Assembly: GCA_964589775.1 (NCBI GenBank)
Contig: CAZPUN010000039.1
Location: forward strand, 1-32,000
Origin: an uncultured archaeon
GTDB taxonomy: Archaea > Asgardarchaeota > Thorarchaeia > Thorarchaeales > CAZPUN01
DNA length: 32,000 bases
Direction: 5' to 3'
Shown here: one piece after another, positions 1,553 through 30,630 of the stretch
Numbering within the stretch: the stretch's first letter is position 1
Layout: the number at the start of each line of letters is the position of its first letter
Notes under the pieces: generated by a model
Told to the model about the DNA's origin: nothing
Databases searched by the model: none
What the model saw: only the letters and a program-made list of their open reading frames with translations
Translations under genes and position numbers: made by a program

Positions 1553-4201
1553 ATGAGTTATATTATATTTGTAGACCCAATTACATTTAAAATAAATAAG
1601 ATCTCGACTAATGTCGCATCTACAAAAATCAAAAATGCTCTTGACGCAATAGCTTCTAAGATATCTACTTCAGATCCAGTCGAAGCCATCCGTAAATTCA
1701 ATGAAGAGTTTTACAATTTGTTACGAAATGAGGAGTCCATTTTTTCCACAATGCCATCAGATACAAGATTTCCGGGATTTATGTCAAGCTTGGCAGACCA
1801 CCTATTGATGACTTCTGCATATGCAGTTGCTCTTGCAGAACAAGCTATTAGGAAAAATATCAGTTTAGCAGAGGAATATCCTGAAAATTCGAAAATACAT
1901 GAAATACTCAACGATAGAAAAAATATCAAACACATTATTAGATTTGCAGCATTAATGCATGATATCGGAAAACCACAGATAAAGCATCACAAAGAAACAG
2001 CTAAAATAGTAAAAGATTTACTTATAAAAATGAATTTTGATCAGACATTAGCAAGCTCAATTGCACAAATGGCATCTAGACATCATTATGGCAAAAAATA
2101 CGAGGATTCGGAGAAGCCACATACGCGAGTGGAATGGATAATTGCTTATGCAGATAAATTATCAGTCCAAGATCGAAGCATGATTCCAAAAAGACCAATT
2201 GAAACTAAAGATGCATTTAATTGGCTTAAAGCAAATACAAAGAACTTGGGCAATAAAGCGATTAAATCTCTAATAGAAGTAGCTGAATTCTTCGATAAAA
2301 ATGCGAGTGCTCTGGAAAAAGGAAAAGTAGACCGTAATTTAGTTCCAGATGCACTTGTAGAGAAAGACCTTGTAACAAAATTAAGGATGGAAAATGAATT
2401 ATCCGGTGAGAACCGTATTAATCTGGGTAAAAAACCATTAGCAATCTTGCTTCTAGAGACCTCAGGAATTCAATCATTTATTTCACGTTCTGAAGCATTG
2501 AAGTATCTTCAGGGGAGTAGTGCACTTCTTGAAGAGGCAATAAATCGAGCAGCTGAAGTAATTGGAGATATGCTCGCACCAGAGACTATAATTTACGTTG
2601 GTGGAGGAGCCCTACTTGCAATCGTACCTGCGGAAGGATATAATGAAATATTAAGCAAAGCAATCGATGCTTTTCGAAAAGTTGCAGGGGAACAAGTATC
2701 ACTAAAGAAAGTACCAAAAGAAGCAGCAACATTCAGTATGTTCGACATAAAAAATGGACTGCTACCAATATGGCAAGAATGGACAAAAACAACACAAGTT
2801 GATTTGCGAGATTTGGTTTTAATTTCACCAGGATTCATATACAAATATCTAACTATAAATTCAATAAGGCAAAGTGGCAAGATTCCTGAATTTTCAACTA
2901 AGCCAAATGATGTATGTGAAATCTGTTATTCGGAACCGCCACATAAGCCAAATAACATGAAAAGATATTTGAAAATAGTTAGACGATTTGAACCGGATAG
3001 GACAGATCTCTCAATTGGTGAATCATGTTACAATGTATTATCATTTCAATACGACGTAATTGATGAAGAAAAACACATTTTATCAGTAAAGAAAGGTTCT
3101 TGTAATATAAATAAGCCAAAATTCAAAATTGGTGCGCTTGAAACATTATATAAAGCAATAAAAATCCTATGTGAAAAATTGCCAGATCTTGGAGTTGAAA
3201 AAGTAGAATATGAAGTTTCACACTTCAACGATATATATAGTTATAAAGCAGGAAATAGCGAGAAGGCATCATATCCCCTCGCAGTCATAGCAGGAGATGG
3301 AGATAATTTCGGTAGCATAAAGGAAGAAATGACGAATTTTACGTTACTCAAGTACATTTCGGATAAGTTCAAGATGGCAATACAAGATACATTAGCGAAA
3401 ACACTAGCAGATATACTGGTAGAACAAATTAAATTGAATAATAAGAATGGAAGTAAGAGCATTAATTTGAAATTACCATTCCGACTAATATATGTCGGGG
3501 GAGATGATTTCTTATTAGCTTTAGATCCAAGAGCAATTCCAAAATTCATTGTCGGCTTGAGAAGATACATGAATGAATTCTTTGGAGAAGCAACATCAAA
3601 ATACAAGAAAAGCCCTGATGAACCATTATCGCGCCAATTTTTAGGAATCTCCATGGGCATTACAATCGGAAAGACAAATTCACCATTGTTTTTAATGTTA
3701 GAATCTGTAAGAGCACTAGAATCCGAGGCGAAAAGATATAGTAAAACATGGCAAGCAAGAAACAAACCACTCTTTGGAAGTGAAATAACCGTAGCAATGC
3801 ATAGATTTGCAAATGTTCCAAATAAACAGGAAATAGTAGATAAATACACTAAAATTATCAACAAGTATAGTGTAACGGGATGGCCAAGAATTGGAGCAGA
3901 AATAATTGAAAATGAGGGCATTTTCGATATAACTAAAAAATTACTAAAAAGAGACATAAAAGCGAATACTATCAAGAATTATTTAGACTTGAATGAACAA
4001 AATATCATAGGGATCGATATAGTATTAAACTATGCAGCAGCTCGGTTGAAGAATGATAAGAAAAAGAGTGAAGGGTACTTGATACTTAACAAAGCATTCT
4101 TTTCAAAATATAAGGACATCAAGAATGCAATTATTACGAGTGACCTTCACGAAATTATGAAAATTATTAATGATGACCCACTATTTTTGGAGGGGCTGTA
4201 A
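1553..4201 (+). CDS. cas10: Type III Cas10 large subunit (III-D-like) with HD nuclease and intact Palm cyclase
   Basis: HD residues SLADH83, LMH136D137IGK, H177H178, AD201. Palm1 SGIQSFI/YVGGG, CEIC zinc knuckle, Palm2 GDGDNFG and YVGGDD. Confidence 0.93.
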   Translation: MSYIIFVDPITFKINKISTNVASTKIKNALDAIASKISTSDPVEAIRKFNEEFYNLLRNEESIFSTMPSDTRFPGFMSSLADHLLMTSAYAVALAEQAIRKNISLAEEYPENSKIHEILNDRKNIKHIIRFAALMHDIGKPQIKHHKETAKIVKDLLIKMNFDQTLASSIAQMASRHHYGKKYEDSEKPHTRVEWIIAYADKLSVQDRSMIPKRPIETKDAFNWLKANTKNLGNKAIKSLIEVAEFFDKNASALEKGKVDRNLVPDALVEKDLVTKLRMENELSGENRINLGKKPLAILLLETSGIQSFISRSEALKYLQGSSALLEEAINRAAEVIGDMLAPETIIYVGGGALLAIVPAEGYNEILSKAIDAFRKVAGEQVSLKKVPKEAATFSMFDIKNGLLPIWQEWTKTTQVDLRDLVLISPGFIYKYLTINSIRQSGKIPEFSTKPNDVCEICYSEPPHKPNNMKRYLKIVRRFEPDRTDLSIGESCYNVLSFQYDVIDEEKHILSVKKGSCNINKPKFKIGALETLYKAIKILCEKLPDLGVEKVEYEVSHFNDIYSYKAGNSEKASYPLAVIAGDGDNFGSIKEEMTNFTLLKYISDKFKMAIQDTLAKTLADILVEQIKLNNKNGSKSINLKLPFRLIYVGGDDFLLALDPRAIPKFIVGLRRYMNEFFGEATSKYKKSPDEPLSRQFLGISMGITIGKTNSPLFLMLESVRALESEAKRYSKTWQARNKPLFGSEITVAMHRFANVPNKQEIVDKYTKIINKYSVTGWPRIGAEIIENEGIFDITKKLLKRDIKANTIKNYLDLNEQNIIGIDIVLNYAAARLKNDKKKSEGYLILNKAFFSKYKDIKNAIITSDLHEIMKIINDDPLFLEGL

Positions 4202-7962: not shown

Positions 7963-8807
7963 ATGGCCCATATGATTATATAGAAGTTGATAATACCAAT
8001 AGGGTGCGCATTTCATCTCCAAAAGACAGAGGAATTCTAAATAACACTTACAAAATTATATTCAAATTAATAACTAGTTCTCCAATACATGTAGGTTCCG
8101 GAAGAAGCAAATTAAAGGATAGTAAAATTATTATGGAATTTTCTAGAAGTAAAAAAACCTTAGTAATTCCAGGGGCTTCATTAAAAGGAGCTATTTCAAC
8201 TAATTATTTGGTATTATCAGGCTCTGGAAATAAAACTAGTGAGCTGTTTGGAACAACTTCAGAAAGTGCATATATATCAAAAGTATTTGTTGATGATTTA
8301 AAAATATTAAACAAAAAACTGGGTTTAAGAATAGTCGGCAAAGCTTTCCCGCCGAGAAAAAAAATGAGAGGGGTTAAATATTACCCACAAGGAACCATAA
8401 CTAAATCAAAATATCTGTTAGAAGTATTAAAAGAAAACACCGAATTATTTGGAAAAATAATTGGGTATCAATTAAGTGAATTAGAAGTGGGCGGCTTAAT
8501 TGCTTCATTAGGAGTAATATTTAATAATAAAAGATTAGAAAAATGGAATTTTAAAATGGGCTATGGAAAATGGTATTTACTTGGAGGCTCAAAAAAAACT
8601 TTTGGACTTGTTCGTCTAAAGCAAATCGCAGTATATAAACTAAACGTTGGATTTTCAAATAAATATGAAAAAATCGATAAGCTAAAATGGACCAAATTTG
8701 TATCTAAATTTTACAATATGGAACGAGAAAATCTTTACGAGACGGTATTAGATGTAGCGAAGCGATATTTTATAAAACAGGAGGATATACAAAATGAGCA
8801 ATACTAA
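7959..8807 (+). CDS. Cas7-group RAMP (Csm5-like terminal subunit)
   Basis: N-terminal GPYDYI, PIHVGSG, VIPGASLKGAI, LFG, KMGYGK...FG. Confidence 0.8.
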   Translation: MNGPYDYIEVDNTNRVRISSPKDRGILNNTYKIIFKLITSSPIHVGSGRSKLKDSKIIMEFSRSKKTLVIPGASLKGAISTNYLVLSGSGNKTSELFGTTSESAYISKVFVDDLKILNKKLGLRIVGKAFPPRKKMRGVKYYPQGTITKSKYLLEVLKENTELFGKIIGYQLSELEVGGLIASLGVIFNNKRLEKWNFKMGYGKWYLLGGSKKTFGLVRLKQIAVYKLNVGFSNKYEKIDKLKWTKFVSKFYNMERENLYETVLDVAKRYFIKQEDIQNEQY

Positions 8808-9186
8808 AGAATTAATACGAGATGCTACCGAATTATATAATGGTATTATCAGAACGGCTGCCTTACAAAATCAAAACCAAAAAAAGGCAAAAAAAAGAGC
8901 ATTAAATACGGTAGAAAAAGCATTCAGAGATCTCTTAATAGATCTAAGATATAATAACATTTCTATAGAAGATATTAGAAAACGCCTTTTGTCGATGTTT
9001 CAAGAAGCTGCAATTAAATCTCAATTAGGGCAGATCAGTTTTTCAAAAATTAATGAAATTTCAAAAAAATTGGCAAGTCTATCCTTCAAAAAATTAAACA
9101 AGTATTCAAAAAATCATACAGACATGATTAGATTTCTTGAATATTCAATTATGAAAATTAAAATTGAAAATGCATTTTCAATTTAA
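8794..9186 (+). CDS. Basic alpha-helical protein, possible second Cas11-like small subunit
   Basis: 130 aa, overlaps the upstream RAMP gene. C-terminal IRFLEYSIMK resembles SKIMEYLVML of 6007-6327. Confidence 0.55.
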   Translation: MSNTKELIRDATELYNGIIRTAALQNQNQKKAKKRALNTVEKAFRDLLIDLRYNNISIEDIRKRLLSMFQEAAIKSQLGQISFSKINEISKKLASLSFKKLNKYSKNHTDMIRFLEYSIMKIKIENAFSI

Positions 9187-9208
9187 AGAATATAAGGAGT
9201 GATTAAAT

Positions 9209-9675
9209 ATGAAGATCTGGGTTACTACAATTGGTACGACAATTTTCGCAGTTATCAATACACTATGGACACAACTAGACAAAAAGCAATTCATTCCAAA
9301 CGCGATATATATTATATATAATGAGGAAATGCAAAACAGAATGAATATTGCAAAACAGATAATTGATACACTTAACGAAACATACAATATTGATATCGAG
9401 ACGAAACCAGTAAAATATAGTGGCACAGCATAGAAGCATTTTCAAGAACAGTAGAAAAAATATTATTAAAACATAAAAATGACGAGATAGCATTAGATGT
9501 GACAGCAGGACGAAAATACATGTCTGCATTATTTTTCAAAATCGGTTTCGAGCGGGATAACATAAAGCATGTTTTCTATACACACATATTGGACAATAAA
9601 TACATAGAAAAGCCGCTTCCAATTATTCCACAACCATATTATAAAGTAATTGACCTAAAAGGAGTTAGTTTTTAA
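9209..9675 (+). pseudogene. Frameshifted CARF-only protein (Crn1/Csx14-like), about 155 aa if repaired
   Basis: Frame 2 (9209-9433) gives CARF motif I KIWVTTIGTT. Frame 1 is open 9421-9675 and reads SIEAFSRTVEKILLKHKNDEIALDVTAGRKYMSALF...VIDLKGVSF*, containing CARF motif II D-x-T-x-G-R-K. One base is missing between 9421 and 9430. Confidence 0.82.
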
Positions 9676-10685
9676 TGAATGTAAAATTAAATAAAGAAGA
9701 ATTAATGGCTCTTATCACCTATATTTACGATAAAACCGATGAGATATTGATTGAATCTCCGTTTACACCAACATTGGCAGACATAAAATTCGGTAAAGAA
9801 ATTAAGCTTAAATTCTTTTTAGAAGATTATGAACGGAGTGTTGAATCCGGAGAAGAGAAAAAATTCTTACCAAGCAGAGATGAACTCACGTATCTATTTT
9901 CATTGGCAGGTATTTTTAAAATTAAGAATATACAAGATATGTATACACAAATAGATGAGTTCAACAGAAGAGATGTCTTCAGGGGTCAAAGAATTGGATT
10001 AATCTCATTTGATACAAATGCGTTTCCACTTAATGTACCGAAATTAGTTTATGAATACATGACATCTAAAAGGCTAAGAAATATTGGTATCTTTATTCCG
10101 AAACCAGTGATAATCGAATTAGAAAGACAATGGATTGAAAGTAGATATAAAATCAGCAAGAAATCAAAGATCAAAGATCAAAAATTTTTGAAGACGTTTT
10201 TAAATCAACTACATCCAAATGCAAGAACGTTTAAATTATGTAGCATTTATGCGCAAAAGCTCGCAAATCAATTTCAAGTATATGCAAGTTCATCATCAGT
10301 ATCTGAGACGGGAGACATAAATATAATAAAAGACATTGAGAAAAACCACCAATATGACCATTTATTAATTACAGAGGATAGTAACATGGAAGGGCTTGCA
10401 TATCAACATAGAATTCAGGTAATTAAAATAGACGGAAATCGTGGAAAAAATTTGAAAAAATTAAGAACACGCACATTAGAAATTTCATGGGAAGTATTAC
10501 GGGATTTCATTTATGTGCTTTCGATCTATATGGGCAAAATAAAGATTTCAAACTTTGAAGTTTCAGGGTTATGGAACGGTAAAGAGGAAAAAGATTGGAA
10601 AAATGAAATAGTTAAAATTTCAACAAAGATAAATCTACCCAAAATCAAAACACTTCAAAAGATTCAGACTATATATGAATATTAA
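9675..10685 (+). CDS. PIN-domain ribonuclease with extra N- and C-terminal regions; candidate type III ancillary effector
   Basis: PIN acidic set SFD113TN, VIIE148LE, GD214INI, LIT233ED235. Start overlaps the CARF stop (TAATG). Confidence 0.85.
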   Translation: MNVKLNKEELMALITYIYDKTDEILIESPFTPTLADIKFGKEIKLKFFLEDYERSVESGEEKKFLPSRDELTYLFSLAGIFKIKNIQDMYTQIDEFNRRDVFRGQRIGLISFDTNAFPLNVPKLVYEYMTSKRLRNIGIFIPKPVIIELERQWIESRYKISKKSKIKDQKFLKTFLNQLHPNARTFKLCSIYAQKLANQFQVYASSSSVSETGDINIIKDIEKNHQYDHLLITEDSNMEGLAYQHRIQVIKIDGNRGKNLKKLRTRTLEISWEVLRDFIYVLSIYMGKIKISNFEVSGLWNGKEEKDWKNEIVKISTKINLPKIKTLQKIQTIYEY

Positions 10686-11005: not shown

Positions 11006-11854
11006 TTGAATATGACAACATACAATTGTGAATTTATATCTCCTGCCTTCATATATGGGGCAAATAAGGAACCGGAGTTTCGCATACCGTCTCTAAAGGG
11101 CATAATAAGATATTGGTGGAGAGCAGCAAAGGTACTACCGACTCAAGAACTACGTGAAGAAGAAAGTAAGCTGTTTGGCTCAAGCAGCAATAAGTACGGA
11201 AAATCACAACTCATAATGCAGGTAATAAAAGATCAGACGGCTCCGAAAAACACCGCATTATTACCACACAAAAACAAAGTACAAAGAAAAGCTCTGATTG
11301 GCTCAGTTAAAATTGCATTACTTTCTAAAGACTATATCAGGATTTTTGAAAACACCTTTGAACTTGCGATAACTCTAGGCGGAATTGGTCGACGTACTCG
11401 ACGAGGATTTGGTAGTATGAATATCATTAAGAAGAACAATGATAATTATGAATATCATGATATCAATGATCTTTTTGACAGATTATTTAAGCTACTATTG
11501 ACATTCAACAACAATTTTACTAAAATAGATGAAAAGACTATTGTGTACAACGATAATTCAGACAACGATACAAAAGCGAATTATCCATACATCAAAGCAG
11601 TATATATCGGAGAGTCATATGAAAAAGTGAATGATGCATTAATAAAAATCGGCAAAATAGCACATAATTTTAGCGATTACGATTCATTAGGATATGCAAA
11701 AGGAGAACATCGTCTTGCATCTCCAGTTGTTGTTTCAATATCAAAAGTAAAAAACGAATTTTATCTGATCATTACAAAACTTAACACACCAGATAATATA
11801 AATGATTTAGATTGTCAAGACGAATTTATAAAAAAACTTGGGGGGTCAAAATAA
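11006..11854 (+). CDS. cmr1: Type III-B RAMP Cmr1
   Basis: SPAFIYGA, EFRIPSLKGIIRYWWRA, LFGS, LGGIGRRTRRGFGS, RLASP. GGAGG at 10991; TTG 11006 or ATG 11012 start. Confidence 0.93.
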   Translation: MNMTTYNCEFISPAFIYGANKEPEFRIPSLKGIIRYWWRAAKVLPTQELREEESKLFGSSSNKYGKSQLIMQVIKDQTAPKNTALLPHKNKVQRKALIGSVKIALLSKDYIRIFENTFELAITLGGIGRRTRRGFGSMNIIKKNNDNYEYHDINDLFDRLFKLLLTFNNNFTKIDEKTIVYNDNSDNDTKANYPYIKAVYIGESYEKVNDALIKIGKIAHNFSDYDSLGYAKGEHRLASPVVVSISKVKNEFYLIITKLNTPDNINDLDCQDEFIKKLGGSK

Positions 11855-11855
11855 A

Positions 11856-13622
11856 ATGACATATATATTTGTATTTACATTTGGTCCTGTACAATCATTT
11901 ATTTCTCAAGCGAGAAAATCTTTTGATTTATATGCAGGAAGTTCTTTACTATCTACATTATCTAAAATTGTTATGGAAAAAGCGAAACAAACTAAAGAAT
12001 GTAAAATCTTGTTCCCGAATATAGATAATGATACCCCACCGAATAGATTTCTTGCGAATTTAGAGTTCAACAATGATTCGGACGTTGAACAGTTCGGAAA
12101 TGAACTAATAGACCATTTAAAGGAGAATTTCATTACGATATTTGAAGAAGTCCATGAAAGAGTAGTTGGCGAGAGTCCTACAGATTCAGCAATATATCAA
12201 ATAAAGAACTTCTTAGAAGTGTATTGGGCAGCATTAAAAGTAGATAAAGAAATCACGAAGGACAAATATAATGAATTGGAGAAAAATCTTGGGAGCATTA
12301 AAAACATCAAGCAATTCAAGGAATTTTCACCAAATAATGACAAAGGATATCAAAAATGTACACAATGTGGGGTTCGAGATGCCTTATTTTATATAAAAGA
12401 ACCAAAATATGTAGCAAAAGATGCAATTGAAATTGATTTAGGCAAAAATTCACCATCCATGAAAGAAAATGAGACATTATGCAGCGTGTGCTTCATGAAG
12501 AGATTCTTATTTAGGTCTCCCACATTTAGGTCCTATAACACAAATAAGAGTAGTAGCTATCCATCAACAGCTGAAATTGCACAATTTAACATATTGAATG
12601 ATAATAGTATAGAGAATCTTAAGACTGTAAGAGACCTAAAGACTCATATAACAAATCTGAAAAGCTTATCACCTGTCAAATATGATCCACAACTCCTTTT
12701 TGAAGATACATTCAATGTAGAAAAAGAAAGAGTGTTCGGTAAAAATGTAGCAAATGCGGAGCAAATTTTCAAATTAATAAAGAATGATCTTGCAGAACTA
12801 AGAAAACAAAATATAAAACAAACACCATATTACGGTATCATCGCTTTTGATGGAGATAACATGGGTAAATGGGTGGCCGGAGAATATCTTACTGAAAATG
12901 TAAATATTAGTACGTATCATAATGAACTAACAACAGAACTAGGCAATTTTGCAAATGAGATTCAAAATTATTACGAGCCACCAAAAGGAAAATTAGTATA
13001 TTGTGGCGGTGATGATGTCTTAGGATACATTAATATTAATTATATTTTTGATGTATTACATAATCTGAGAAATTCATATCCTGACTTCAGATCAATACAA
13101 GGAGTTGATAAAACTAAAGAATCGACTGCTTCCTGTGGTGTTTGTATTGCGCACTATAAACAACCATTATCAGAAGTACTAACATGGGCTAGAAAAGCAG
13201 AAAAAATTGCAAAAGGTAATAAAGAAAAAGATAGTGTATGCTTTGTGATCCTAAAACGCTCAGGGGATACTGAAAAATTCGTCGTGAAATGGGATAAGAA
13301 TACCAAAGTTCTCGATGATCTAAAATACATAATCCAAAAAATAAAAGATAACACATTTTCAAACTCGACAATTTCAAACATTAGCACAGTCATACTTGAT
13401 TTATTCGATATAACTGATGATTTGGATAAACAATATAGAAACAAGATCAAAGTACTCGTTGAACAATGTGCAAAAAGAGGCTATCAAGGTAATGATAACG
13501 AAGAAGTTAAGAACTTCTCGGAGAAAATTATGTCATTTTGGGATGCTTTTGATAAAATACAAGAATTCATCTCATTTTTGAATTTCATCCAATTTATAAA
13601 TAGGGAGGCATACATCAAATGA
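11856..13622 (+). CDS. cmr2: Type III-B Cas10/Cmr2 lacking the HD domain, cyclase motif intact
   Basis: Starts directly with FGPVQSFISQARKSFDLYAGS; PNRF, CTQC...CSVC zinc finger, FDGDNMG, YCGGDD, KRSG. ATG 11856 (ORF track starts at 11838). Confidence 0.95.
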   Translation: MTYIFVFTFGPVQSFISQARKSFDLYAGSSLLSTLSKIVMEKAKQTKECKILFPNIDNDTPPNRFLANLEFNNDSDVEQFGNELIDHLKENFITIFEEVHERVVGESPTDSAIYQIKNFLEVYWAALKVDKEITKDKYNELEKNLGSIKNIKQFKEFSPNNDKGYQKCTQCGVRDALFYIKEPKYVAKDAIEIDLGKNSPSMKENETLCSVCFMKRFLFRSPTFRSYNTNKSSSYPSTAEIAQFNILNDNSIENLKTVRDLKTHITNLKSLSPVKYDPQLLFEDTFNVEKERVFGKNVANAEQIFKLIKNDLAELRKQNIKQTPYYGIIAFDGDNMGKWVAGEYLTENVNISTYHNELTTELGNFANEIQNYYEPPKGKLVYCGGDDVLGYININYIFDVLHNLRNSYPDFRSIQGVDKTKESTASCGVCIAHYKQPLSEVLTWARKAEKIAKGNKEKDSVCFVILKRSGDTEKFVVKWDKNTKVLDDLKYIIQKIKDNTFSNSTISNISTVILDLFDITDDLDKQYRNKIKVLVEQCAKRGYQGNDNEEVKNFSEKIMSFWDAFDKIQEFISFLNFIQFINREAYIK

Positions 13623-14744: not shown

Positions 14745-15146
14745 TTGAAATTATTTCAGAGTTTATCACATGAATTGACACAAAAACAAATCAATGATAC
14801 AAAAAGTTCATCAAATGTACAATTGCGTATTCAGCCTTCTGAGAATCTTAAGAAAATTTGGAGAGAAATTCCACCAAATAAAGCGGAAATTACAGGAACA
14901 CTTAAGCCGATTACAGACTGGCTTTGCAAAAACGCTACAAGCGAAAATTATACACTCAATCAAGGGGATTATAGTGCTACATATATCTACGTAGATTTCG
15001 CAAACAAAATTGGATCTATCCCACTCTACGCAACAACTGATGAGTATGAAATTAAAGAAAAACAATTTGACGAAACTAAAAAAATGATAAGAAAATCCAA
15101 GTATGTTATGTTTAGAAAATACAAAACAGAAAATTATGATCGTTAA
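14745..15146 (+). CDS. csx20: Csx20-like CRISPR-associated protein (putative cOA ring nuclease), divergent
   Basis: Motif series SHELT..Q..D, IW..IPP, LKPI.DWL, QGDYSAT, PLYATT, FRKY matches my recollection of the Csx20 family; lies within the cmr operon. Confidence 0.75.
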   Translation: MKLFQSLSHELTQKQINDTKSSSNVQLRIQPSENLKKIWREIPPNKAEITGTLKPITDWLCKNATSENYTLNQGDYSATYIYVDFANKIGSIPLYATTDEYEIKEKQFDETKKMIRKSKYVMFRKYKTENYDR

Positions 15147-21046: not shown

Positions 21047-21159
21047 AAAATATTTAGAATTAGAAAAACTTCATAAAACGACAGAATACGCTCTAATTTT
21101 TATCAATAAGTTTATAATTATTGTATATAAATATCATAATACATAGGAGATTAATAAAA

Positions 21160-21759
21160 ATGCACCACGTCACATATCATGTACAAAAGGGGAAACTTGT
21201 TAAAGTTCCTAATGACGGAAAATTTGGAAGAGGCGACTGCTATCTAATTGATGCAGGTTTGAAGATATATCTCTGGATCGGAGAAAACTCCACAGTTGAT
21301 GAGAAATTCTTAGTTGCTGCAAGTTCAGTTTTCAAGGATACGCGTCGAAAAGGCGAAGCGATAATTGAACGCATAGAACAGGGAAAAGAGCCCAAGGAAT
21401 TCTTAGACTTGTTTGGTGGCAAAATAGAAGTTACAGACCAAGATACCGAAGGAATCTTACGAAAGGTCCATCTTGAAAAAAGAGAATACAAACTATTCCA
21501 CATTAAAGAAGTTAATGATGAAATTTTCTTCACGGAAGTTGAAAAATCCAAAGATTCACTTAATTCAGATGATGTATTTCTGCTGGATACATTTGATAAG
21601 ATCTATGTCTGGCGAGGAAAGAATTCTACAGGAATGGAGAAGTTCCAGGGTACATTCTTTGCGAGACGATACGACGAAGAACGAGCAGGCGTTCAGGAAC
21701 TTATTTTAATTGAAGAAGGAGAGGAGCCGGAAGAATTTCTTAAGGCTCTCGAGGCATAA
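21160..21759 (+). CDS. Two-domain gelsolin-family actin regulator (Asgard 2DGel-like)
   Basis: Two repeats: GDCYLID...IYLWIG.NS..DEK...EQGKEPKEF and DDVFLLD...IYVWRG.NS..MEK...EEGEEPEEF; LRKV in the linker. ATG 21160 follows AGGAG. Confidence 0.9.
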   Translation: MHHVTYHVQKGKLVKVPNDGKFGRGDCYLIDAGLKIYLWIGENSTVDEKFLVAASSVFKDTRRKGEAIIERIEQGKEPKEFLDLFGGKIEVTDQDTEGILRKVHLEKREYKLFHIKEVNDEIFFTEVEKSKDSLNSDDVFLLDTFDKIYVWRGKNSTGMEKFQGTFFARRYDEERAGVQELILIEEGEEPEEFLKALEA

Positions 21760-21765
21760 TTTGTA

Positions 21766-23775
21766 TTATGCCGTATTCTCCTCATTTTCTTCTTCTACAG
21801 ATATATCAATATCGGAAACTTCCGCGGTCTTTTCATTTTCGACCCAAGCGAATTTTCTAACCAGGGTCTTAGGATAATACTTCTTCCAGTCATATCCAAC
21901 CTGCTGGAACCATTTATAGAAAACACGTGGATCAATGTAGGATTTAAGACTAGTACCCAGGTTCCATGTGCGAGTTTTATTGCTCATCTCAAATTGTGTT
22001 TTTAACTTCTTTTTCGCAAGTTTAGCCTTCTTAACTCGTAGCTTTGCGGTTTCAATTTGCTTCTTCTTTTTCTCAATTCGTCGCTTGGTGGTTTCAATTC
22101 GCTTTTTAATTCGGCTCCGTTTCTTCTCTTTCTCTTCGGCTTTGAGCTCTTCCCTTAAAGATTTCAGCTTATCATTCAACTCAGCCAATTGCTCTTTCCG
22201 CTCATCTAATTTTGCCTCGGCTTTCTCAATACGTTCATCTGCTTTCTTTAAGCGTTCTTTGTAGCGTTCGACACGCTTATCCCAATTTTTTGGTCCTTGC
22301 TTAAAGTGATTACAGATTTTTGCAGCCTCTAGATTTGCAAGTTGTGCTTGCTTTTTCTTTTCAAAATCAGGAGCATCGGGGTCAATTTTCACGTTTTCCA
22401 AATATTTTTCAACAGCTATCGTAGCGTTAAAAGTTCTGAACACCTTCGCAGTAAGCCCAGGCATCGCTTTCTGCAAAAATTCATTAACGTGACGGCTGGT
22501 CACATCAGGAAAAATCTGAGGATTATCCAAAGTGGGATGGCCCGTCTTCCGAGTTTTAGGTGCTTCAGCGTTCGCAATCAATTCCTCAAGATTCTTCAGA
22601 ACAATGGGTGGAAACTTTACCTTTTTGTGCCATAGAACACTATCCTTTCCAAGAAACTTAAATTCGACCGTACCATCTTTGTGAATCTTAATATGTTCCG
22701 GTCTTAACGTAGTAGCACCAACAGTATCCGCCTCATCTGGATCCTTCTCATCACCAACTCTCATACTAAGCTTGTCAATAATATAGCATGCCGTAGCAAT
22801 CTGCCGAATTTTTGGATCTTCACTTGATAAGGCATCTTCAATATATTTTCTAACCCGTTCAATTTCCGTTCTGAGCCGCATGGCAGACTCAAACTTCATC
22901 TTTTCACGTGCCTGTTTCAATGGTGAAGTGTCCGCAAGCCATACATATTTGACTTTTCCGGTCAGTTTATCCGTCCATTTGGCTACGTATAACGTATCTG
23001 GTTCCCAATGAACTTCCTTCCAGCCCCAACCGGGCATCGGAGCCTCATCACATAAGTTTAGGATAATATCAGACTCTTGAGCTCCTTCTTTCCAGCAACC
23101 TCGTAATGGATGCTCTCCTCGACCCATAAAAATACTGCTCGGCTCTACAACATAATTCGAAATTTCCATAACTTCCGGTTCAAAAATATCGAATCCGATA
23201 AGTCGTTTAACACTTAAGGGCTCATTCTCATCAAATTCAGGAATCCGCGGATGCGCAATTAACTCAGCAACTAATTCTGCAACAATCTCATTAATAAACA
23301 CGGAAAATTCATCTTCAACCTGATTGTCATTTTCTGATGTAATTAGTTCAAGTATTCTACTTTCTATGTTTGCAAATAGATCGTCATCAACTTCGCCATA
23401 GATTGCATACCCATATTTTGCCTTGAGAGCCTCACGCTTTTTCTTTCGTTCCTCACGCAGGATCTTTTTCTCTTCCTTGCTCATATTTTCCTTTCGTGCC
23501 TTTTCCTCTTCGACAATTCTAATAGCAGGCGTAAAATCAACTTCATCTACAGTTAGCGGAGGCTCAATACCAAGCTCTTTACTGAAATCTTTCATAAAAT
23601 TAGCAACGAATACTTCGTCTTCAACATATGCAGTCCCCTGTTTCTTTGCCCATGCAATAGCCATTTCTTCTTGCTTCGGTGTTAACTTAATCGTCTTCCC
23701 TCGAACCACAAGCTCAAGCCCAAAATATTCAGGAGGGGGTGGAACATATACACCGCGATGTATCAAGATCTTCAT
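21766..23775 (-). CDS. top1: DNA topoisomerase IB, large eukaryote-like form
   Basis: Catalytic pentad SMRVG, FLGKDS, KVFRT, ICNH and SYIDPR (Y613); FMGRGEHPLRG; long coiled-coil linker before the Tyr domain. Confidence 0.95.
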   Translation of the reverse strand: MKILIHRGVYVPPPPEYFGLELVVRGKTIKLTPKQEEMAIAWAKKQGTAYVEDEVFVANFMKDFSKELGIEPPLTVDEVDFTPAIRIVEEEKARKENMSKEEKKILREERKKKREALKAKYGYAIYGEVDDDLFANIESRILELITSENDNQVEDEFSVFINEIVAELVAELIAHPRIPEFDENEPLSVKRLIGFDIFEPEVMEISNYVVEPSSIFMGRGEHPLRGCWKEGAQESDIILNLCDEAPMPGWGWKEVHWEPDTLYVAKWTDKLTGKVKYVWLADTSPLKQAREKMKFESAMRLRTEIERVRKYIEDALSSEDPKIRQIATACYIIDKLSMRVGDEKDPDEADTVGATTLRPEHIKIHKDGTVEFKFLGKDSVLWHKKVKFPPIVLKNLEELIANAEAPKTRKTGHPTLDNPQIFPDVTSRHVNEFLQKAMPGLTAKVFRTFNATIAVEKYLENVKIDPDAPDFEKKKQAQLANLEAAKICNHFKQGPKNWDKRVERYKERLKKADERIEKAEAKLDERKEQLAELNDKLKSLREELKAEEKEKKRSRIKKRIETTKRRIEKKKKQIETAKLRVKKAKLAKKKLKTQFEMSNKTRTWNLGTSLKSYIDPRVFYKWFQQVGYDWKKYYPKTLVRKFAWVENEKTAEVSDIDISVEEENEENTA

Positions 23776-24024: not shown

Positions 24025-26790
24025 ATGAATTGGGAGGAAAAAGGTGTGCTATTATATTCGCTAAAGCGCGTAAAAAGAGGTTGGCGTCTTTTTACATTTA
24101 TGTTCATAGGGATCGTAATCTCAACGACACTATTTGCAGGAACAAACATAGGTTCTAACCAAATTATGTCTGGAATCATCAATGAACAAATAAGTTCAGT
24201 AAAAGTAGATATGTCTGCACGAGGATATACAAACATTACCGATGATACGACAATAAATCAAATAAATTCATTAAGCCACGTTACACATGCGGAGCAATTA
24301 GGTATTATTAATATTATAACGAATGCATCATCACGTTTATCATATCTAATAGGGCTACAACAAAATTCGAAGTTACAAAGCGGGATTACGCTAGTTAGAG
24401 GTCGGGAACCAACAGGTGTGAATGAGACGGTAATTCCCATAGATTCAACAATGGCAAATAACGTCGATATTGGGGATACACTCTATCTTAATATAACATG
24501 GATGAACTACACAACATATTCAATAAATTCTGTATTATACCCATTAAAAGTAGTTGGAGTCGTATCATTAAATGATACCGTAAAAAACATCTTTCAAGAC
24601 GTATATGTAATTTATAATTCGTATAATAGTATGTATATTTCAGAAACAGAAACACCATATGATTTCGCAATTGTAAACTACGATACATGCTTGGAGTTCG
24701 CCAAAAAAGAAGAAACTATTACAAAAACACATGATCTTACAATTAAAATATTAATTTGGGTCGATAGAACATATTATGCAAATCCGTACGACATTGATAC
24801 AAGCATTCAAAGGTTAGAACAATTAAAATCTCAAGTTGGGAATATTCTAAGCAATTATGATTTTTATGTTCGAAGTGATCTGCTTGCAATGCTGCAATTT
24901 TCATCTTTTATGATAAGTTTTATCAAAATACAGCTTCTAATCACAAGTCTACCGATTTTCTTCATGGTATGGTATATGGGTACGATCCTTAGCAATCTAA
25001 CATACAACCTGAGGCGTAAAGAAATTGGACTGCTATTGACTAAAGGATTTGAACCAAGTAGAATTCGGCGGATGTTCCTAACTGAAGGTTTGATCATTGG
25101 CATACTCGCCGGCGTCATAGGAATTTTCACAGGTGGTGTGGCCTCAGCAATTACTATAGGCGACGAAGGTCTTACATTTCCTGCTTCGGCGATAGGAATC
25201 GATACTGTGATTATTACAATTATTGCAGGTGCCATATTTGGAATTTTCAGCGTTTACGGACCTGCAGGTAGAGCTTCCAAAATGAAGGTACTAAATGCAC
25301 TGAGAGAATACGTATATATCGAGGAAGAAGCACCATATAGAGATAAACTTGCGAAAATTGCGTTACTACTCGGTACTTACAAGTTAATTACGTGGCTATT
25401 AGGGTTCTCCGTTATTGATATCATGAGAAACATTTCATACTCAAACATACTTTTAGTAATTGCAGTAGTTATTTGGATGTTTGTTGATATGGGTCTGAGT
25501 TACATAGGTCCAATTTTGTTCTTCTATGGATTTGCGAAGATTTTCATTCAGAAGTCCATGAAGTTTAAGGACAAGATCGAATCGTTCGCTTCAACTATAT
25601 ACGGCGAACTCGGAAAACTTGCAGCTAAGGATATCAGTAGAAATACCGCACGAAATGCTTCTGTAGCCTTCATTTTAGCACTAATAATCGGATACTCTGT
25701 AAGCTCATCATTTTATGCAACTTCAAATATTGATTTCATGAATCGTCGAATTTATGCAGAGGTAGGCAGTGACGTACGAATAGATTTGGTTAATGCAAAT
25801 AATATGTCCTACGCACTAAATAACCTGTCAAAAATGGAAAATGTACAACACGTTGCGGGAGTATATTCTACAATAGTAGGTACTACATATAGACAAGCAA
25901 GAATTAATGTTGTTAATGGAACGGATTGGTTAGCGACCGCATATTATGAGGATAGCTGGTTTTCATCCTCACCACAGGAACTATTCGCACAGCTGGATTC
26001 AAGCAACTCAATAATATTAGAAAGAATTATTGCAGCAAACCTTGAACTTGAAATAGGCGATTATATACATGTTGATATTGGTCATAAATCAGTTAATCTA
26101 AAAATTATTGGATTGTTTGGACCAATTCCACAAACCCAATCAATCGGCGGCACTACTTATACATTTGCTGAATCAACATGGTCTTTTGTCTCATGGAAAA
26201 CGATCAATACAACCGTTGGAAGCAGTTTTAGTGCAGATTCATCATATGTGCTCGTAAAATTAAACAATTTAGAAAATACATATTCATTTACGGATACAGT
26301 AAAGAACTACACATCATATGTAAAAAATATAAATTCTGTCAAATATCAGAAAGACCAATTATCCACATCATATCAATATTCACTAAACATACGGGTTTCT
26401 CAACTTATTATGCTATTTACAATGATCTTAGCAACTTTAGGCACATTTGTTATCACTCAGGTCTCACTTGCGGAAAAACGACGCGAAATCGCATTAATCA
26501 GCGTTCGCGGACTTTCCATAAGACAAATGGCACAAATGTTACTCGCGGAGACTTCAGTCATCTTCATTCTATCGATGATACTGGGTATTTTCGTCGGAAC
26601 TATAATGGCTTATGGCTCCGTAATTTCACAGGCTAAGATATTTAGTACATTGGTAGTACATAGACTTGTATTTGGTCTAGATGTATTAGGTACTATTGCA
26701 GCTTTTATTGGTGCGATATTATTATGTGTAATAATTCCGGTCCTGCTTGCGGCAAGACGAGGAAGCAGAGATTTTGAAACATTGAGGTGA
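24025..26790 (+). CDS. MacB/FtsX-family ABC transporter permease, copy 1
   Basis: Two FtsX-like TM modules (RRKEIGLLLTKG; KRREIALISVRG) with large extracellular loops. True start is probably GTG 24046. Confidence 0.9.
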   Translation: MNWEEKGVLLYSLKRVKRGWRLFTFMFIGIVISTTLFAGTNIGSNQIMSGIINEQISSVKVDMSARGYTNITDDTTINQINSLSHVTHAEQLGIINIITNASSRLSYLIGLQQNSKLQSGITLVRGREPTGVNETVIPIDSTMANNVDIGDTLYLNITWMNYTTYSINSVLYPLKVVGVVSLNDTVKNIFQDVYVIYNSYNSMYISETETPYDFAIVNYDTCLEFAKKEETITKTHDLTIKILIWVDRTYYANPYDIDTSIQRLEQLKSQVGNILSNYDFYVRSDLLAMLQFSSFMISFIKIQLLITSLPIFFMVWYMGTILSNLTYNLRRKEIGLLLTKGFEPSRIRRMFLTEGLIIGILAGVIGIFTGGVASAITIGDEGLTFPASAIGIDTVIITIIAGAIFGIFSVYGPAGRASKMKVLNALREYVYIEEEAPYRDKLAKIALLLGTYKLITWLLGFSVIDIMRNISYSNILLVIAVVIWMFVDMGLSYIGPILFFYGFAKIFIQKSMKFKDKIESFASTIYGELGKLAAKDISRNTARNASVAFILALIIGYSVSSSFYATSNIDFMNRRIYAEVGSDVRIDLVNANNMSYALNNLSKMENVQHVAGVYSTIVGTTYRQARINVVNGTDWLATAYYEDSWFSSSPQELFAQLDSSNSIILERIIAANLELEIGDYIHVDIGHKSVNLKIIGLFGPIPQTQSIGGTTYTFAESTWSFVSWKTINTTVGSSFSADSSYVLVKLNNLENTYSFTDTVKNYTSYVKNINSVKYQKDQLSTSYQYSLNIRVSQLIMLFTMILATLGTFVITQVSLAEKRREIALISVRGLSIRQMAQMLLAETSVIFILSMILGIFVGTIMAYGSVISQAKIFSTLVVHRLVFGLDVLGTIAAFIGAILLCVIIPVLLAARRGSRDFETLR

Positions 26791-26795
26791 TAATT

Positions 26796-27686
26796 GTGGC
26801 ATTTATTGAAGCTAAAGACTTGGTAAAAGTATATTCAACAGGAAGTATTGAAGTTCAAGCTCTTAGAGGTTTGAACATTGAAATTGAAGAAGGACAATTC
26901 GTATCGATCATGGGACCTTCCGGAAGCGGTAAAACTACTTTACTAAACATATTAGGAGGGCTGGACACTCCAACCGCAGGAAAAGTCATTGTTCAAGGTG
27001 TATCTCTCGGTCAGCTATCCTTTAACAATATTGTAAAGTTTCGAAGAGAAGTTGTAGGACATATATTTCAGTCTTTCAATCTCATTCCAACACTAACAGC
27101 ATATGAGAACGTAGAACTACCCATGATCGCTGCTGGAAAACCCAGAAACGAACGCCATGATAGAATTATGGAACTACTAAGCATACTAGGAATTGCAGAT
27201 AGAGCGAAACATAAACCAGACGAATTAAGTGGTGGAGAGCAACAACGAGTCGCCATAGCTGCAGCATTGGCAAATGATCCCCCAATAATCCTTGCGGACG
27301 AACCCACGGGAGAACTCGACACGACTAATGCGCGAATGATCGTCGATTATCTCAATAAGATTAACAAAGAAATGGGCAAGACCATCATTATGGTAACTCA
27401 CGATCCTTCTGTAGCTCGAAAGACCCAGAAGATTTTCAGAATCGAAGACGGAAGAATTATTGCGGCGGTAAGACCATCTGAACTAAAGGAAGAAACTTCT
27501 GCAAAATCCTATGGAGAACAAATCAGGCTGCGAATCGAAGCTCTTGATGAGGAGCTCAGGGAACTTGATGAAGAGTTCAAGTCTGGAAGGATCGATGGAG
27601 ACCAATATTCAGAGAATAGATTACGAATTAAAAAGATCAAAGAAGCACTTATTGAAGAACTACACAGAATGGGTGAATCGATCTAA
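26796..27686 (+). CDS. LolD/MacB-type ABC ATP-binding protein, copy 1
   Basis: GPSGSGKT, LSGGEQQR, ILADEPTG, VTHD. GAGGTGA RBS before GTG 26796 (ORF track starts at 26787). Confidence 0.95.
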   Translation: MAFIEAKDLVKVYSTGSIEVQALRGLNIEIEEGQFVSIMGPSGSGKTTLLNILGGLDTPTAGKVIVQGVSLGQLSFNNIVKFRREVVGHIFQSFNLIPTLTAYENVELPMIAAGKPRNERHDRIMELLSILGIADRAKHKPDELSGGEQQRVAIAAALANDPPIILADEPTGELDTTNARMIVDYLNKINKEMGKTIIMVTHDPSVARKTQKIFRIEDGRIIAAVRPSELKEETSAKSYGEQIRLRIEALDEELRELDEEFKSGRIDGDQYSENRLRIKKIKEALIEELHRMGESI

Positions 27687-27856: not shown

Positions 27857-30625
27857 ATGAAGATGAGAGTGAAAATGCTATTTTATTCATTTAAGCGTGT
27901 TATGCGAGGGTGGCGTCTTTTTTCAATTTTATTTATAGGAATTGCGATTTCAACATCCTTATTTGCAGGAACAAATATAGCTACTTACCAGATCATGAAC
28001 GGGTTCGTCAATGAGCAGCTCCAAAACATATATGTAGATATGTATGGAACTTCAACTACGAATTTTGCAGACAATACGACTATTAGCCAAATAAAGTCTT
28101 TGAATCATGTCAAATACGTTGAAAATTTTGGTATTGACATGAATATAGAGACGAATATTTCCAGTTTAGCAGGAACTCCGTATTTGGTCGGAATGGAACA
28201 AAGCTCAATTTTGTTCAATGAAATTCGGCTAATAAAAGGGACAAAGACAATTGGTCCAAATGAGACTGTGATACCTGCAGATTCAACCTTTGCGAATAAT
28301 GTAAGTGTAGGAGATACAATATACCTCAATATCACGTGGACTAATCAGACGTCTTCAGAATTGACGTATAGGACATATCCGTTGAAAGTAGTTGGTATTG
28401 TAGCATTAAATTCCACAGTAAAAGACATATTTGAAGGTAATTTTGTATCAAGAGAAGATATATTCAGATTACCAATACCGATATATGAGGAAAAACATGA
28501 TTACATTATAGTTAATTTTGAAACATATAGAAACTACGAAAATGCAAAATTAAACTTGACTCACAGTGAAGATTTTACAAATAGGGTACTAATTTGGGTC
28601 GATAGAACGTATTATGCAACCCCATATACTCTAAGCGAGAGCGTTAGCAAGTTAACTCAATTGAATGATCAAATTGCGGATATATTAGCATCAAAAGAGT
28701 ACATATTAAAAAGTGACCTACTTTATGACCTAAACATTATGGCATTTAGTATTGATTTTATTAAGATACGCATAGTCATAGTAATGCTTCCCATATTTTT
28801 CATGATATGGTATATGGGCACAATACTTAGCGAACTAACATACAATCTAAGACGCAAGGAAATCGGATTATTACTAACCAAAGGATTCGAGGCAAAAAGA
28901 ATTCGAAAGATGTTCCTAACTGAAGCGATAATACTCGGTTTGTTAGCAGGTATAGTAGGTATATTTGCAGGACAATTCATCTCGACACTTATAGATACAA
29001 ACCCAACAATTTTTCCATTTTCAAACATAGGGGTTGATACAATTATTATCACAATAGTTGTAGGAATTCTATTTGGCATCTTTACTGTTTATGGACCTGC
29101 AGGTAGAGCTTCAAAACTAAATGTGATCGATGCACTAAAGCAATACATTTACATTGAAGAGAAAAAACCCTATAGAGAAAAACTGGCTAAAATCGCATTG
29201 CTACTAGGTACCTACAAAATAGTTTCATGGATAACAGGATTTTCAATCATCGAAACCATGCTCAGTATAAACTTTTCAAATATACTTCTGGAGATTGTAT
29301 TCATTATAGTGATACTTATTGATGCTCTGCTGGATTACATAGGTCCAATTTTGTTCTTCTATGGATTTGCGAAAATTTTCATCCAGAAGTCCATGAAGCT
29401 CAATAACAAAATTGAATCGTTTGCCTCACATATTTATGGCGAATTTGGAAAACTAGCATCTAAGAACATCAGCAGAAATACAGCACGAAATGCTTCGATA
29501 GCATTCATCTTAGCACTCATAATTGGCTATTCAGTGAGCTCTACATTATATTCTGCATCGAATCTAGATTTTATGAATCGCTCAATTTATGCAGATGTTG
29601 GAAGCGATGTTCGAGTTAATTTACTGAATCCAAATAATATGTCTTATGCACTTAATAATATATCATGGAATACAAAGGTGATACACATTGCGGGAATATA
29701 TTCAACGCTCATGAGAACTCCGGTCAGTCTAGCTAACGTTCAAATAGTAAATGGTAGCGACTGGGTATCTACGGCATATTATGAGAACAGCTGGTTTTCA
29801 GATAACCCACAAGATTTATTCAGCAAATTGGATTCAAATAGATCAATAATACTTGAAAGAGTTATCGCAAGGAATTTACAACTCAATGTCGGAGACCGTA
29901 TAAATATTCAAATTAACAGAAAGTCGATCAATTTATTGGTCGTTGGATTTTTCGGACCGATTCCACATATGAATAAACTAGAAAACACAAGTTATTATTA
30001 TGCTCAGGATACATGGTCCTTTATTTCCTGGAAGACAATAAGTCAAATATTGGGAAATGATTTCAACATGACCACAGCCTATGTGCTAGTTAAACTAAAC
30101 AAATTGGAGCAATCAGATTCATTTACCGACACGATGAAGAAATATACATCATTTGTACAAAGTATAAAATCTGTTAAAGAACTTAAAGACAATTTGTTGT
30201 CTACTTTTCAATATAGAATTAATATACAAATTTCCGAGCTCGTATTGCTATTCACAATGTTTTTGGCAACTATCGGTACTTTCATTATTATTCAAGTCTC
30301 ACTTGCGGAAAAACGACGCGAAATCGCATTAATCAGTGTTCGCGGACTTTCCATAAAACAAATGGCTCAAATGCTACTCGCAGAAACCTCGATTATATTT
30401 ATTCTATCATTAGCCTTAGGTACATTTGTTGGAACTATTATGGCATATGGCACAATAATTTCGCAATCTGAAATACTTAGTTCATTAGTTGTAGAAAGAA
30501 TGGTATTTGGCCCGGATGTATTAGGAACTATTGGACTTCTTATTGGAGTAATATTATTATGTATGATAGTACCGGTCCTGTTTGTGGCAAGAAAGGGGAC
30601 CAAAGACTTTGAAACATTGAGGTGA
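27857..30625 (+). CDS. MacB/FtsX-family ABC transporter permease, copy 2
   Basis: Colinear paralog of 24025-26790 with the same motifs and identical C-terminus DFETLR. Start is probably ATG 27875. Confidence 0.9.
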   Translation: MKMRVKMLFYSFKRVMRGWRLFSILFIGIAISTSLFAGTNIATYQIMNGFVNEQLQNIYVDMYGTSTTNFADNTTISQIKSLNHVKYVENFGIDMNIETNISSLAGTPYLVGMEQSSILFNEIRLIKGTKTIGPNETVIPADSTFANNVSVGDTIYLNITWTNQTSSELTYRTYPLKVVGIVALNSTVKDIFEGNFVSREDIFRLPIPIYEEKHDYIIVNFETYRNYENAKLNLTHSEDFTNRVLIWVDRTYYATPYTLSESVSKLTQLNDQIADILASKEYILKSDLLYDLNIMAFSIDFIKIRIVIVMLPIFFMIWYMGTILSELTYNLRRKEIGLLLTKGFEAKRIRKMFLTEAIILGLLAGIVGIFAGQFISTLIDTNPTIFPFSNIGVDTIIITIVVGILFGIFTVYGPAGRASKLNVIDALKQYIYIEEKKPYREKLAKIALLLGTYKIVSWITGFSIIETMLSINFSNILLEIVFIIVILIDALLDYIGPILFFYGFAKIFIQKSMKLNNKIESFASHIYGEFGKLASKNISRNTARNASIAFILALIIGYSVSSTLYSASNLDFMNRSIYADVGSDVRVNLLNPNNMSYALNNISWNTKVIHIAGIYSTLMRTPVSLANVQIVNGSDWVSTAYYENSWFSDNPQDLFSKLDSNRSIILERVIARNLQLNVGDRINIQINRKSINLLVVGFFGPIPHMNKLENTSYYYAQDTWSFISWKTISQILGNDFNMTTAYVLVKLNKLEQSDSFTDTMKKYTSFVQSIKSVKELKDNLLSTFQYRINIQISELVLLFTMFLATIGTFIIIQVSLAEKRREIALISVRGLSIKQMAQMLLAETSIIFILSLALGTFVGTIMAYGTIISQSEILSSLVVERMVFGPDVLGTIGLLIGVILLCMIVPVLFVARKGTKDFETLR

Positions 30626-30630
30626 TCTAT

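Follow-up and report, generated by a model that had tools for sequence, protein, structure and literature searches.

The window analysed here, i.e., the first 32 kb of contig 39 (CAZPUN010000039.1) of an uncultured Asgard archaeon assembly (GCA_964589775.1), is AT-rich (33.9% GC) and derives from a 2.16-Mb genome in 64 contigs with a completeness of 96.75%. Between two type III CRISPR modules it carries two adjacent genes, one for a small CARF protein and one for a PIN-domain protein, and this pair is a two-gene form of the catalogued Crf6/CARF_m1 family of CARF+PIN proteins. Annotation with Pfam, NCBIfam and PADLOC gave the following order on the + strand: (i) Cas6, (ii) a III-D-like module, (iii) a 130-aa open reading frame (ORF), (iv) the CARF gene, (v) the PIN gene and (vi) a III-B module. 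The pair has the orientation of both type III operons, starting 23 nt past the last ORF of the III-D-like module and ending 320 nt before cmr1. An earlier note on this DNA, made from the sequence and its translated ORFs, had proposed that the two genes encode the sensor and the RNase of one effector gated by cyclic oligoadenylate (cOA).

The CARF gene begins with an ATG codon at position 9209 (+ strand), and 5 nt upstream of it a Shine-Dalgarno-like motif can be read (GGAGTGAT; 9196-9203, +), which probably serves as the ribosome-binding site. Translation from this ATG ends at a TAG codon (9431-9433) after 74 codons. The resulting N-terminal piece (9209-9433) contains motif I (VTTIGTT) and aligns with the N-terminal parts of 30 CARF_m1 proteins. 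The C-terminal piece (9433-9675, +) follows in another frame, open from 9421 to 9675, and carries motif II (DVTAGRKYMS), a conserved IP...DL tail and a TAA stop codon (9673-9675). Both signature motifs (TTIGTT and LDVTAGRKYMS) named in the earlier note are thus present, but not in the single CARF-only reading frame described there: they lie in the frames 9209-9433 and 9421-9675, one base being missing between them.

The frameshift site (9421-9433, +) is the only stretch in which both frames are open, and alignment showed it to be one base short relative to intact homologues. Residues 1-38 of the intact CARF protein of the nearest relative (P0058) align with frame 2 (9311-9424) and residues 39-117 with frame 1 (9424-9660), with no gap in the query; since the two segments adjoin in the query, the sequence is one base short near 9424-9431. 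With GCAATAGAA at this site, or with one additional base anywhere from 9421 to 9433, the CARF frame would be whole, and the intact protein would comprise about 155 aa. Both halves are free of any further stop codon and retain the family motifs, sharing 39% (N-terminal half) and 67% (C-terminal half) identity with P0058. Direct reading of the sequence at 9421-9433 revealed neither a long homopolymer nor a slippery heptamer. Programmed -1 frameshifting was considered and rejected, as no such heptamer occurs there and the nearest homologue is encoded in a single frame. As encoded, the CARF protein is truncated at residue 74, which would leave the PIN protein without its sensor, and the module may not work in this genome; the lesion is either a real, recent inactivation or an assembly error.

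The stop codon of the CARF gene overlaps the start codon of the PIN gene (9675-9677) as TAATG; a separate GGAG motif is found 10 nt ahead of the latter gene. This coupling and the length of the downstream product, 336 aa, are as the earlier note had described them. The PIN subunit (9675-10685, +), examined with PADLOC, HMMER and AlphaFold, consists of an N-terminal platform (residues ~1-105), a PIN domain (~106-255) with the acidic residues D113, E148, D214 and D235, and a C-terminal domain containing the sequence GLWNGKEEKDW. When 46 PIN parts were aligned, those of the fused forms among them, D113, T114 and D214 proved invariant, and E148, N177, R184 and D235, as well as G287, G298, W300, K303 and W308 of the C-terminal domain, are conserved in at least 90%, which bears out the complete active site claimed for this protein. 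Since the pattern G-x-W-x-G-K...W is kept in at least 90% of the 46 relatives, GLWNGKEEKDW is a family motif.

The assignment to Crf6/CARF_m1 is based on PADLOC-DB, which carries the profiles of the CARF census. The fused model CARF_m1--CARF_PIN (PDLC01973; 465 positions) is covered consecutively by the N-terminal CARF piece (P0002; model positions 1-65, E 1e-18), the C-terminal CARF piece (P0003; 77-144, E 2e-14) and the PIN protein (P0001; its residues 2-320 on positions 169-456, E 5e-32). The stand-alone CARF_m1--CARF models also match both pieces (E 1e-7 for P0002 and 7e-20 for P0003), and CARF_m1 outscores every other CARF clade, so that the CARF domain belongs to this clade despite the frameshifted gene. 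The PIN domain with its acidic residues and the middle and C-terminal domains of the family are likewise present. In Crf6 the CARF and PIN domains form one polypeptide, whereas here the CARF frame ends at TAA 9673-9675 and a new ATG follows at 9675. As the same split is shared by 16 of 29 related loci (see below), the pair is a split variant of Crf6 and not a canonical fused member. Makarova (2025; Supplementary Table 2) lists Crf6 as CARF+PIN, with PIN predicted to be an RNase, describes it as typically not CRISPR-associated and annotates it 's,e,r', which we read as sensor, effector and ring nuclease. The window pair shares with Crf6 the CARF clade, the middle platform, the PIN domain and the C-terminal GxWxGK...W domain, and differs from it in being made of two polypeptides, in its frameshifted CARF gene and in its position inside a type III island. 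In Pfam and NCBIfam the PIN subunit has no significant match; the only hits, both below threshold, were PIN_4 (E 8e-4) and, for the pair, CARF_Card1 (E 1e-3).

An AlphaFold model of the PIN protein, built on the alignment of 46 parts (pLDDT 92.8, pTM 0.91), has its best structural match in the CARF-PIN protein SiRe_0806 of Sulfolobus islandicus, whose structures are available in the apo form (PDB 9JXW) and with cyclic tetra-adenylate (cA4; PDB 9JXX). Residues 1-336 of the model superpose on residues 153-417 of SiRe_0806 (9JXX) with a Z-score of 16.9 and a root-mean-square deviation of 3.0 A over 244 aligned residues, and the CARF profile matches the CARF domain of that protein (residues 16-134, E 4e-8). 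The connection with SiRe_0806 came from fold comparison and from profiles; a phmmer search of PDB sequences with the PIN protein gave nothing meaningful. Ordinary PIN domains (SMG6, Utp24, Nmd4 and VapC) reached Z-scores of 7-10, over residues 95-260 of the PIN protein only. Because the whole chain matches the non-CARF part of SiRe_0806, its N- and C-terminal flanks correspond to the scaffold of a CARF-PIN nuclease of known structure and not to a new sensor. These flanks, called unexplained in the earlier note, are therefore a family scaffold, covered both by the fused PADLOC model and by the superposition. SiRe_0806 and the window pair also have in common a type III signalling context and, according to the PDB titles, SiRe_0806 binds cA4; the former is, however, a single chain of 429 aa and the latter is a product of two genes. 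Single-chain SiRe_0806 has been reported to be a cA4-activated nuclease that is switched on by dimerization of dimers (Wang et al., Nucleic Acids Res 2025, gkaf744), and a preprint citing that work states that the PIN fusion cleaves RNA.

The pairing recurs widely. A word-indexed protein search with the PIN protein returned only the protein itself, and a search for its relatives among genome contigs found none. Exhaustive HMMER searching yielded 55 cluster representatives, most of them of 300-376 aa, and four of 487-584 aa with an N-terminal CARF domain. In the two nearest metagenomic relatives that were inspected, a CARF gene immediately precedes the PIN gene, and one of these pairs is followed by cas1-cas2. 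Among 400 genomes of the phylum to which the window belongs, 49 carry the family. ORFs were re-called at 29 loci and scored with purpose-built CARF and PIN profiles: CARF is followed by PIN as a separate gene at 16 loci, nearly always with a 4-nt overlap, the two are fused at 10 more, and in the other three cases the PIN gene is broken further, the locus is cut by a contig end or the genes are not adjacent. CARF-PIN pairing, for which the earlier note had proposed to score homologues by their adjacency to each other and to cas10, is thus far beyond chance. Two points are to be added to the account given there: the family is catalogued, and a distantly related single-chain CARF-PIN protein has been solved with cA4. 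Already known, then, are the family, the CARF-only profiles (PDLC01971 and PDLC01972) and the solved distant CARF-PIN protein, and our literature search found no paper that describes or tests the two-gene form. The local interest of the window lies in its frameshifted sensor and in its clear type III and Csx20 context.

When the PIN parts were placed in a maximum-likelihood tree, at least five changes of the label fused/split were needed, at least two of them forced by well-supported branches. The window protein groups with a 44%-identical relative in a mostly split clade (41 split, 2 fused); short metagenomic proteins were scored as split from their length alone, two of them being checked on contigs. 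The changes of label, together with the large split clade, show that the split is old, stably inherited, and has been made or undone more than once. Several variants of the architecture were observed: (i) a well-supported clade of fused genes in f2, the sister family of the window organism, with proteins of 527-564 aa (L012, L014, L017, L018, L021, L022 and L026, in genomes G386, G330, G370, G395, G362, G392 and G348, respectively), (ii) a subclade whose stand-alone CARF protein has an extra C-terminal extension of ~120 aa (L030:1501-2352 and L033:1501-2340; 284 and 280 aa), (iii) a related fused form of 661 aa with a long insert between CARF and PIN (L031:1501-3483), and (iv) a degraded copy with an intact CARF gene and a PIN gene in two ORFs of 235 and 139 aa (L011, G287:C136, 1414-3089).

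As the window CARF gene is broken, complex formation was predicted for the intact pair of a relative from the same taxonomic order (L019, genome G318; CARF 983-1486, 168 aa; PIN 1486-2550, 355 aa), with alignments of our own. The pair scored 0.87 and the best of three controls 0.00. Of the solved complexes, 58 of 80 attained this mark, as did 2 of 110 mismatched pairs, counts which are rough since our own alignments were used. The runs agreed in at least 94% of contacts, with a partner pLDDT of at least 88. The model therefore supports, without proving it, binding between CARF and PIN of L019, and with it the interface that the earlier note had wished to see modelled, with the reservation that the two proteins correspond to the halves of a split gene and that a like single-chain structure has been solved, so that the pass may reflect likeness. 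On the CARF side the predicted interface is formed by the conserved C-terminal tail (residues 141-157, IP...Q.L.DL motif) and two helices, and on the PIN side by the N-terminal helix (9-20) and the C-terminal helix (347-355), i.e., by the flanks. Both elements are kept in the window proteins, as IIPQPYYKVIDL and LMALITYIY. The separate encoding of sensor and nuclease, and their action as one cOA-gated complex, are accordingly favoured by four lines of evidence: the fused homologues, the adjacency, the cas10 linkage described below and the L019 prediction.

A small upstream gene overlapping a gene for a PIN nuclease, whose fold carries four acidic residues, is also the layout of VapBC systems, and together with the tight predicted interface it might suggest a toxin-antitoxin-like arrangement, in which CARF restrains the PIN nuclease and frees it on ligand binding. 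We consider such inhibitory control very unlikely. The upstream partner in the window is a CARF nucleotide sensor matched by CARF models only, with no DNA-binding antitoxin domain (AbrB, RHH, PHD or HTH) found in it, and the window PIN protein differs from VapC in carrying two extra domains. Besides, the single-chain relative is reported to be activated by cA4-induced assembly (Wang et al., 2025), and a truncated CARF beside a PIN protein with every catalytic residue intact would be toxic if the lesion were real. The latter combination is compatible with a sensor that activates its nuclease; alternatively, the lesion is very recent or an artefact.

Both flanking modules contain a candidate source of the signal. 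In the III-D-like module this is a Cas10 protein with an HD domain (1553-4201, +; 882 aa; Pfam Cas10 palm2 and HD, PADLOC Cas10), adjoining a Csx10-type Cas5 and accompanied by several Csx7/Csm3-like RAMP proteins. In the III-B module it is a Cas10/Cmr2 protein without HD (11838-13622, +; 594 aa; NCBIfam Cmr2 E 5e-46, Pfam palm2 E 2e-28), encoded in the order Cmr1, Cas10/Cmr2, Cmr3, Csx20, a RAMP protein at the Cmr4 position, Cmr5 and a further RAMP protein at the Cmr6 position. GGDD is retained in both Cas10 proteins, at residues 649 and 390, respectively, in agreement with the earlier note. Directly before the CARF gene, the last ORF of the III-D-like operon (8794-9186, +; 130 aa) is matched by no model of Pfam, NCBIfam or PADLOC and may encode a small subunit that has diverged or else an accessory protein.

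The gene for Csx20, a candidate cA4 ring nuclease (14745-15146, +), is flanked by cmr3 and by the RAMP gene that occupies the place of cmr4. Its PADLOC match (E 1e-30) is full-length, with residues 2-127 on positions 3-127 of 128, and stands inside the type III locus. Csx20 has been shown to degrade cA4 specifically (PMC12409355), hence its presence in the operon points to cA4 as the signal. Models of Csx1, Csm6, Can, NucC or Cam proteins (Pfam, PADLOC) matched none of the larger ORFs of the window except the CARF pieces themselves. The statement that the island lacks genes of these families thus stands, with the addition that a ring-nuclease gene, overlooked in the earlier note, is there. In the rest of the genome one other CARF protein was found, a 221-aa Csa3-like regulator composed of CARF3 and a winged-helix domain (G000:C20:13582-14244; L034:4583-5248, +), with a lactate racemase-like gene and a Ras-family GTPase gene as neighbours and no CRISPR genes nearby. 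Neither SAVED (PF18145) nor the Csm6 HEPN domain (PF09659) was found in the genome, a result of little weight since the control genomes were also silent. The CARF-PIN pair is therefore the only nuclease-type cOA effector candidate detected in this genome.

The ring nuclease also bears on the alternative raised in the earlier note, namely that CARF is a stand-alone Crn1-like ring nuclease acting as an off-switch and that the PIN protein senses the signal through its own flanks. The best PDB sequence matches of the CARF_m1 profile are indeed the Crn1 proteins Sso2081 (E 3e-11) and Sis0455 (E 5e-10), with shared G-x-S/T and G-R-K motifs; these CARF_m13 proteins resemble the window CARF in size and in standing alone, and both motifs I and II are shared. 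The Ser/Thr of motif I and the Arg-Lys of motif II are present in the window CARF, which does not show catalysis, and an added ring-nuclease activity would be possible in view of the 's,e,r' annotation of Crf6. However, Crn1 acts alone, whereas the window type of CARF has a conserved tail predicted to bind PIN and, in many relatives, forms one covalent chain with this PIN scaffold. The flanks are kept in these fused forms, match the non-CARF scaffold of SiRe_0806 and constitute the predicted docking surface of CARF. With Csx20 at hand a separate ring-nuclease role for CARF is unnecessary, and type III loci with two ring nucleases are rare (10 of 242; PMC12409355). We regard this off-switch arrangement as highly improbable.

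A search for the Cas10 palm domain in the 400 genomes of the phylum found 69 positive ones, 25 among the 49 that carry the family versus 44 among the 351 others, which is to be read as a trend only, as the genomes are related and many are fragmented metagenome-assembled genomes (MAGs). A cas10 gene lies within about 12 kb of the family on the same contig at nine places in eight genomes, the window included. The proposed linkage is seen as a trend, which does not extend to all carriers of the family (see below). It could also be supposed that the pair answers a signal unrelated to Cas10, its place between the type III modules reflecting defence-island clustering only. In this regard, of the genomes with the seven fused f2 loci only one (G330) has a Cas10 match, and a weak one (E 6e-10), a scarcity that agrees with the published remark on Crf6 and CRISPR cited above. 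This supposition nevertheless appears improbable for the window, where the pair is co-directional with both operons at distances of 23 and 320 nt, a cA4 ring nuclease occurs in the same island, the solved relative binds cA4, and the proximity to cas10 is repeated elsewhere.

The reading that we prefer sees in the pair a two-subunit RNase gated by cA4 which, if the frameshift is no error, is out of action in this assembly; its probability is estimated at about 0.75. The analysis establishes the family membership, the split and fused architectures, the adjacency of the genes, the fold and the conservation of the catalytic residues, whereas the ligand, the formation of a complex, the way of activation and RNA as substrate are inferred. 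Binding of target RNA would activate the Cas10 cyclases, leading to the production of cOA, most likely cA4. The small CARF protein, presumably a dimer, would act as the sensor, docking by its conserved C-terminal tail onto the PIN platform (N-terminal helix and C-terminal domain) and binding cA4 while docked there. By analogy with single-chain SiRe_0806, ligand-driven higher-order assembly would then switch on the PIN nuclease, with RNA as the probable substrate, and Csx20 of the Cmr operon may degrade cA4 and so reset the system.

Several points weigh against this reading. The CARF gene is frameshifted in the assembly, and the genes as they stand cannot give rise to the complex. The identity with SiRe_0806 is no more than 16-18%, so that its ligand and mechanism are transferred here by analogy. 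In an older test another CARF-PIN protein, ST0035, showed weak cA4 binding only and no induced RNase activity (PMC6546367), and we found no experiment on any split CARF-PIN pair in the literature. Finally, 24 of the 49 family-positive genomes gave no Cas10 palm match, though many are incomplete MAGs; the signal thus need not come from Cas10 in general, and the link of the family to type III systems is real, not obligatory.

The frameshift raises the further possibility that the locus is a decaying remnant, in which CARF is dead, PIN is being lost and the type III systems are left with nothing but cleavage of target RNA and the HD nuclease. The lesion lies outside any long homopolymer, the PIN gene of the relative L011 is itself broken in two, and no other nuclease-type CARF or SAVED effector, but only the Csa3-like regulator, was detected in this 96.75%-complete genome. 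On the other hand, the CARF halves have acquired no further stop codon and keep their motifs and their identity to the nearest homologue, the PIN gene and Csx20 are intact, and an assembly error of a single base is possible. Decay is thus conceivable, and we hold it to be unlikely without dismissing it.

Apart from cA4 gating itself, the split may have a function of its own: free CARF, present in excess, would bind and cleave cA4 and exchange on the PIN platform, giving a self-timed effector whose threshold is set by the ratio of the subunits. We find this quite unlikely; if true, the frequent presence of the family in Cas10-less Asgard genomes would point to a second source of signal.

To our knowledge, in nearly all cOA effectors studied the sensor and the toxic domain reside on one chain. 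In Csx1/Csm6 (CARF-HEPN) and Can1/Can2/Card1 (CARF-PD-D/ExK) proteins, to which the CARF halves give weak CARF matches (PADLOC), a CARF sensor likewise controls a promiscuous nuclease according to the cOA that Cas10 makes, while in the window the nuclease is a PIN domain and is encoded apart from the sensor. A two-subunit CARF-PIN RNase that is widespread and stably inherited would be a natural system for studying how CARF relays ligand binding across a non-covalent interface, and would also show whether a free sensor limits its own signal. In this particular genome, where the pair is placed between two cyclase-competent type III modules with Csx20 close by, it depends on the frameshift whether there is a working signalling arm. 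Since the two-gene form outnumbers the fused one in the phylum, pipelines built on fused models may miss it.

At the locus of the nearest relative (L002; GCA_053994715.1, JBMYAO010000227.1, 399-5501), the CARF-PIN pair precedes two genes without annotation (473 and 500 aa) and the SDR gene that is also found in the window, and a Cmr module is missing; with respect to this backbone, the III-B module thus seems to have been inserted or lost. Elsewhere in the window, genes for a gelsolin-repeat protein (21121-21759, +) and a eukaryote-type topoisomerase IB (21766-23775, -) are arranged tail to tail, both being eukaryote-like signature proteins consistent with an Asgard origin. Further downstream, a two-gene unit encoding an FtsX-like permease (~921 aa) and an ABC ATPase (299 aa) is present as a tandem duplicate (24025-27686 and 27857-31521, +).

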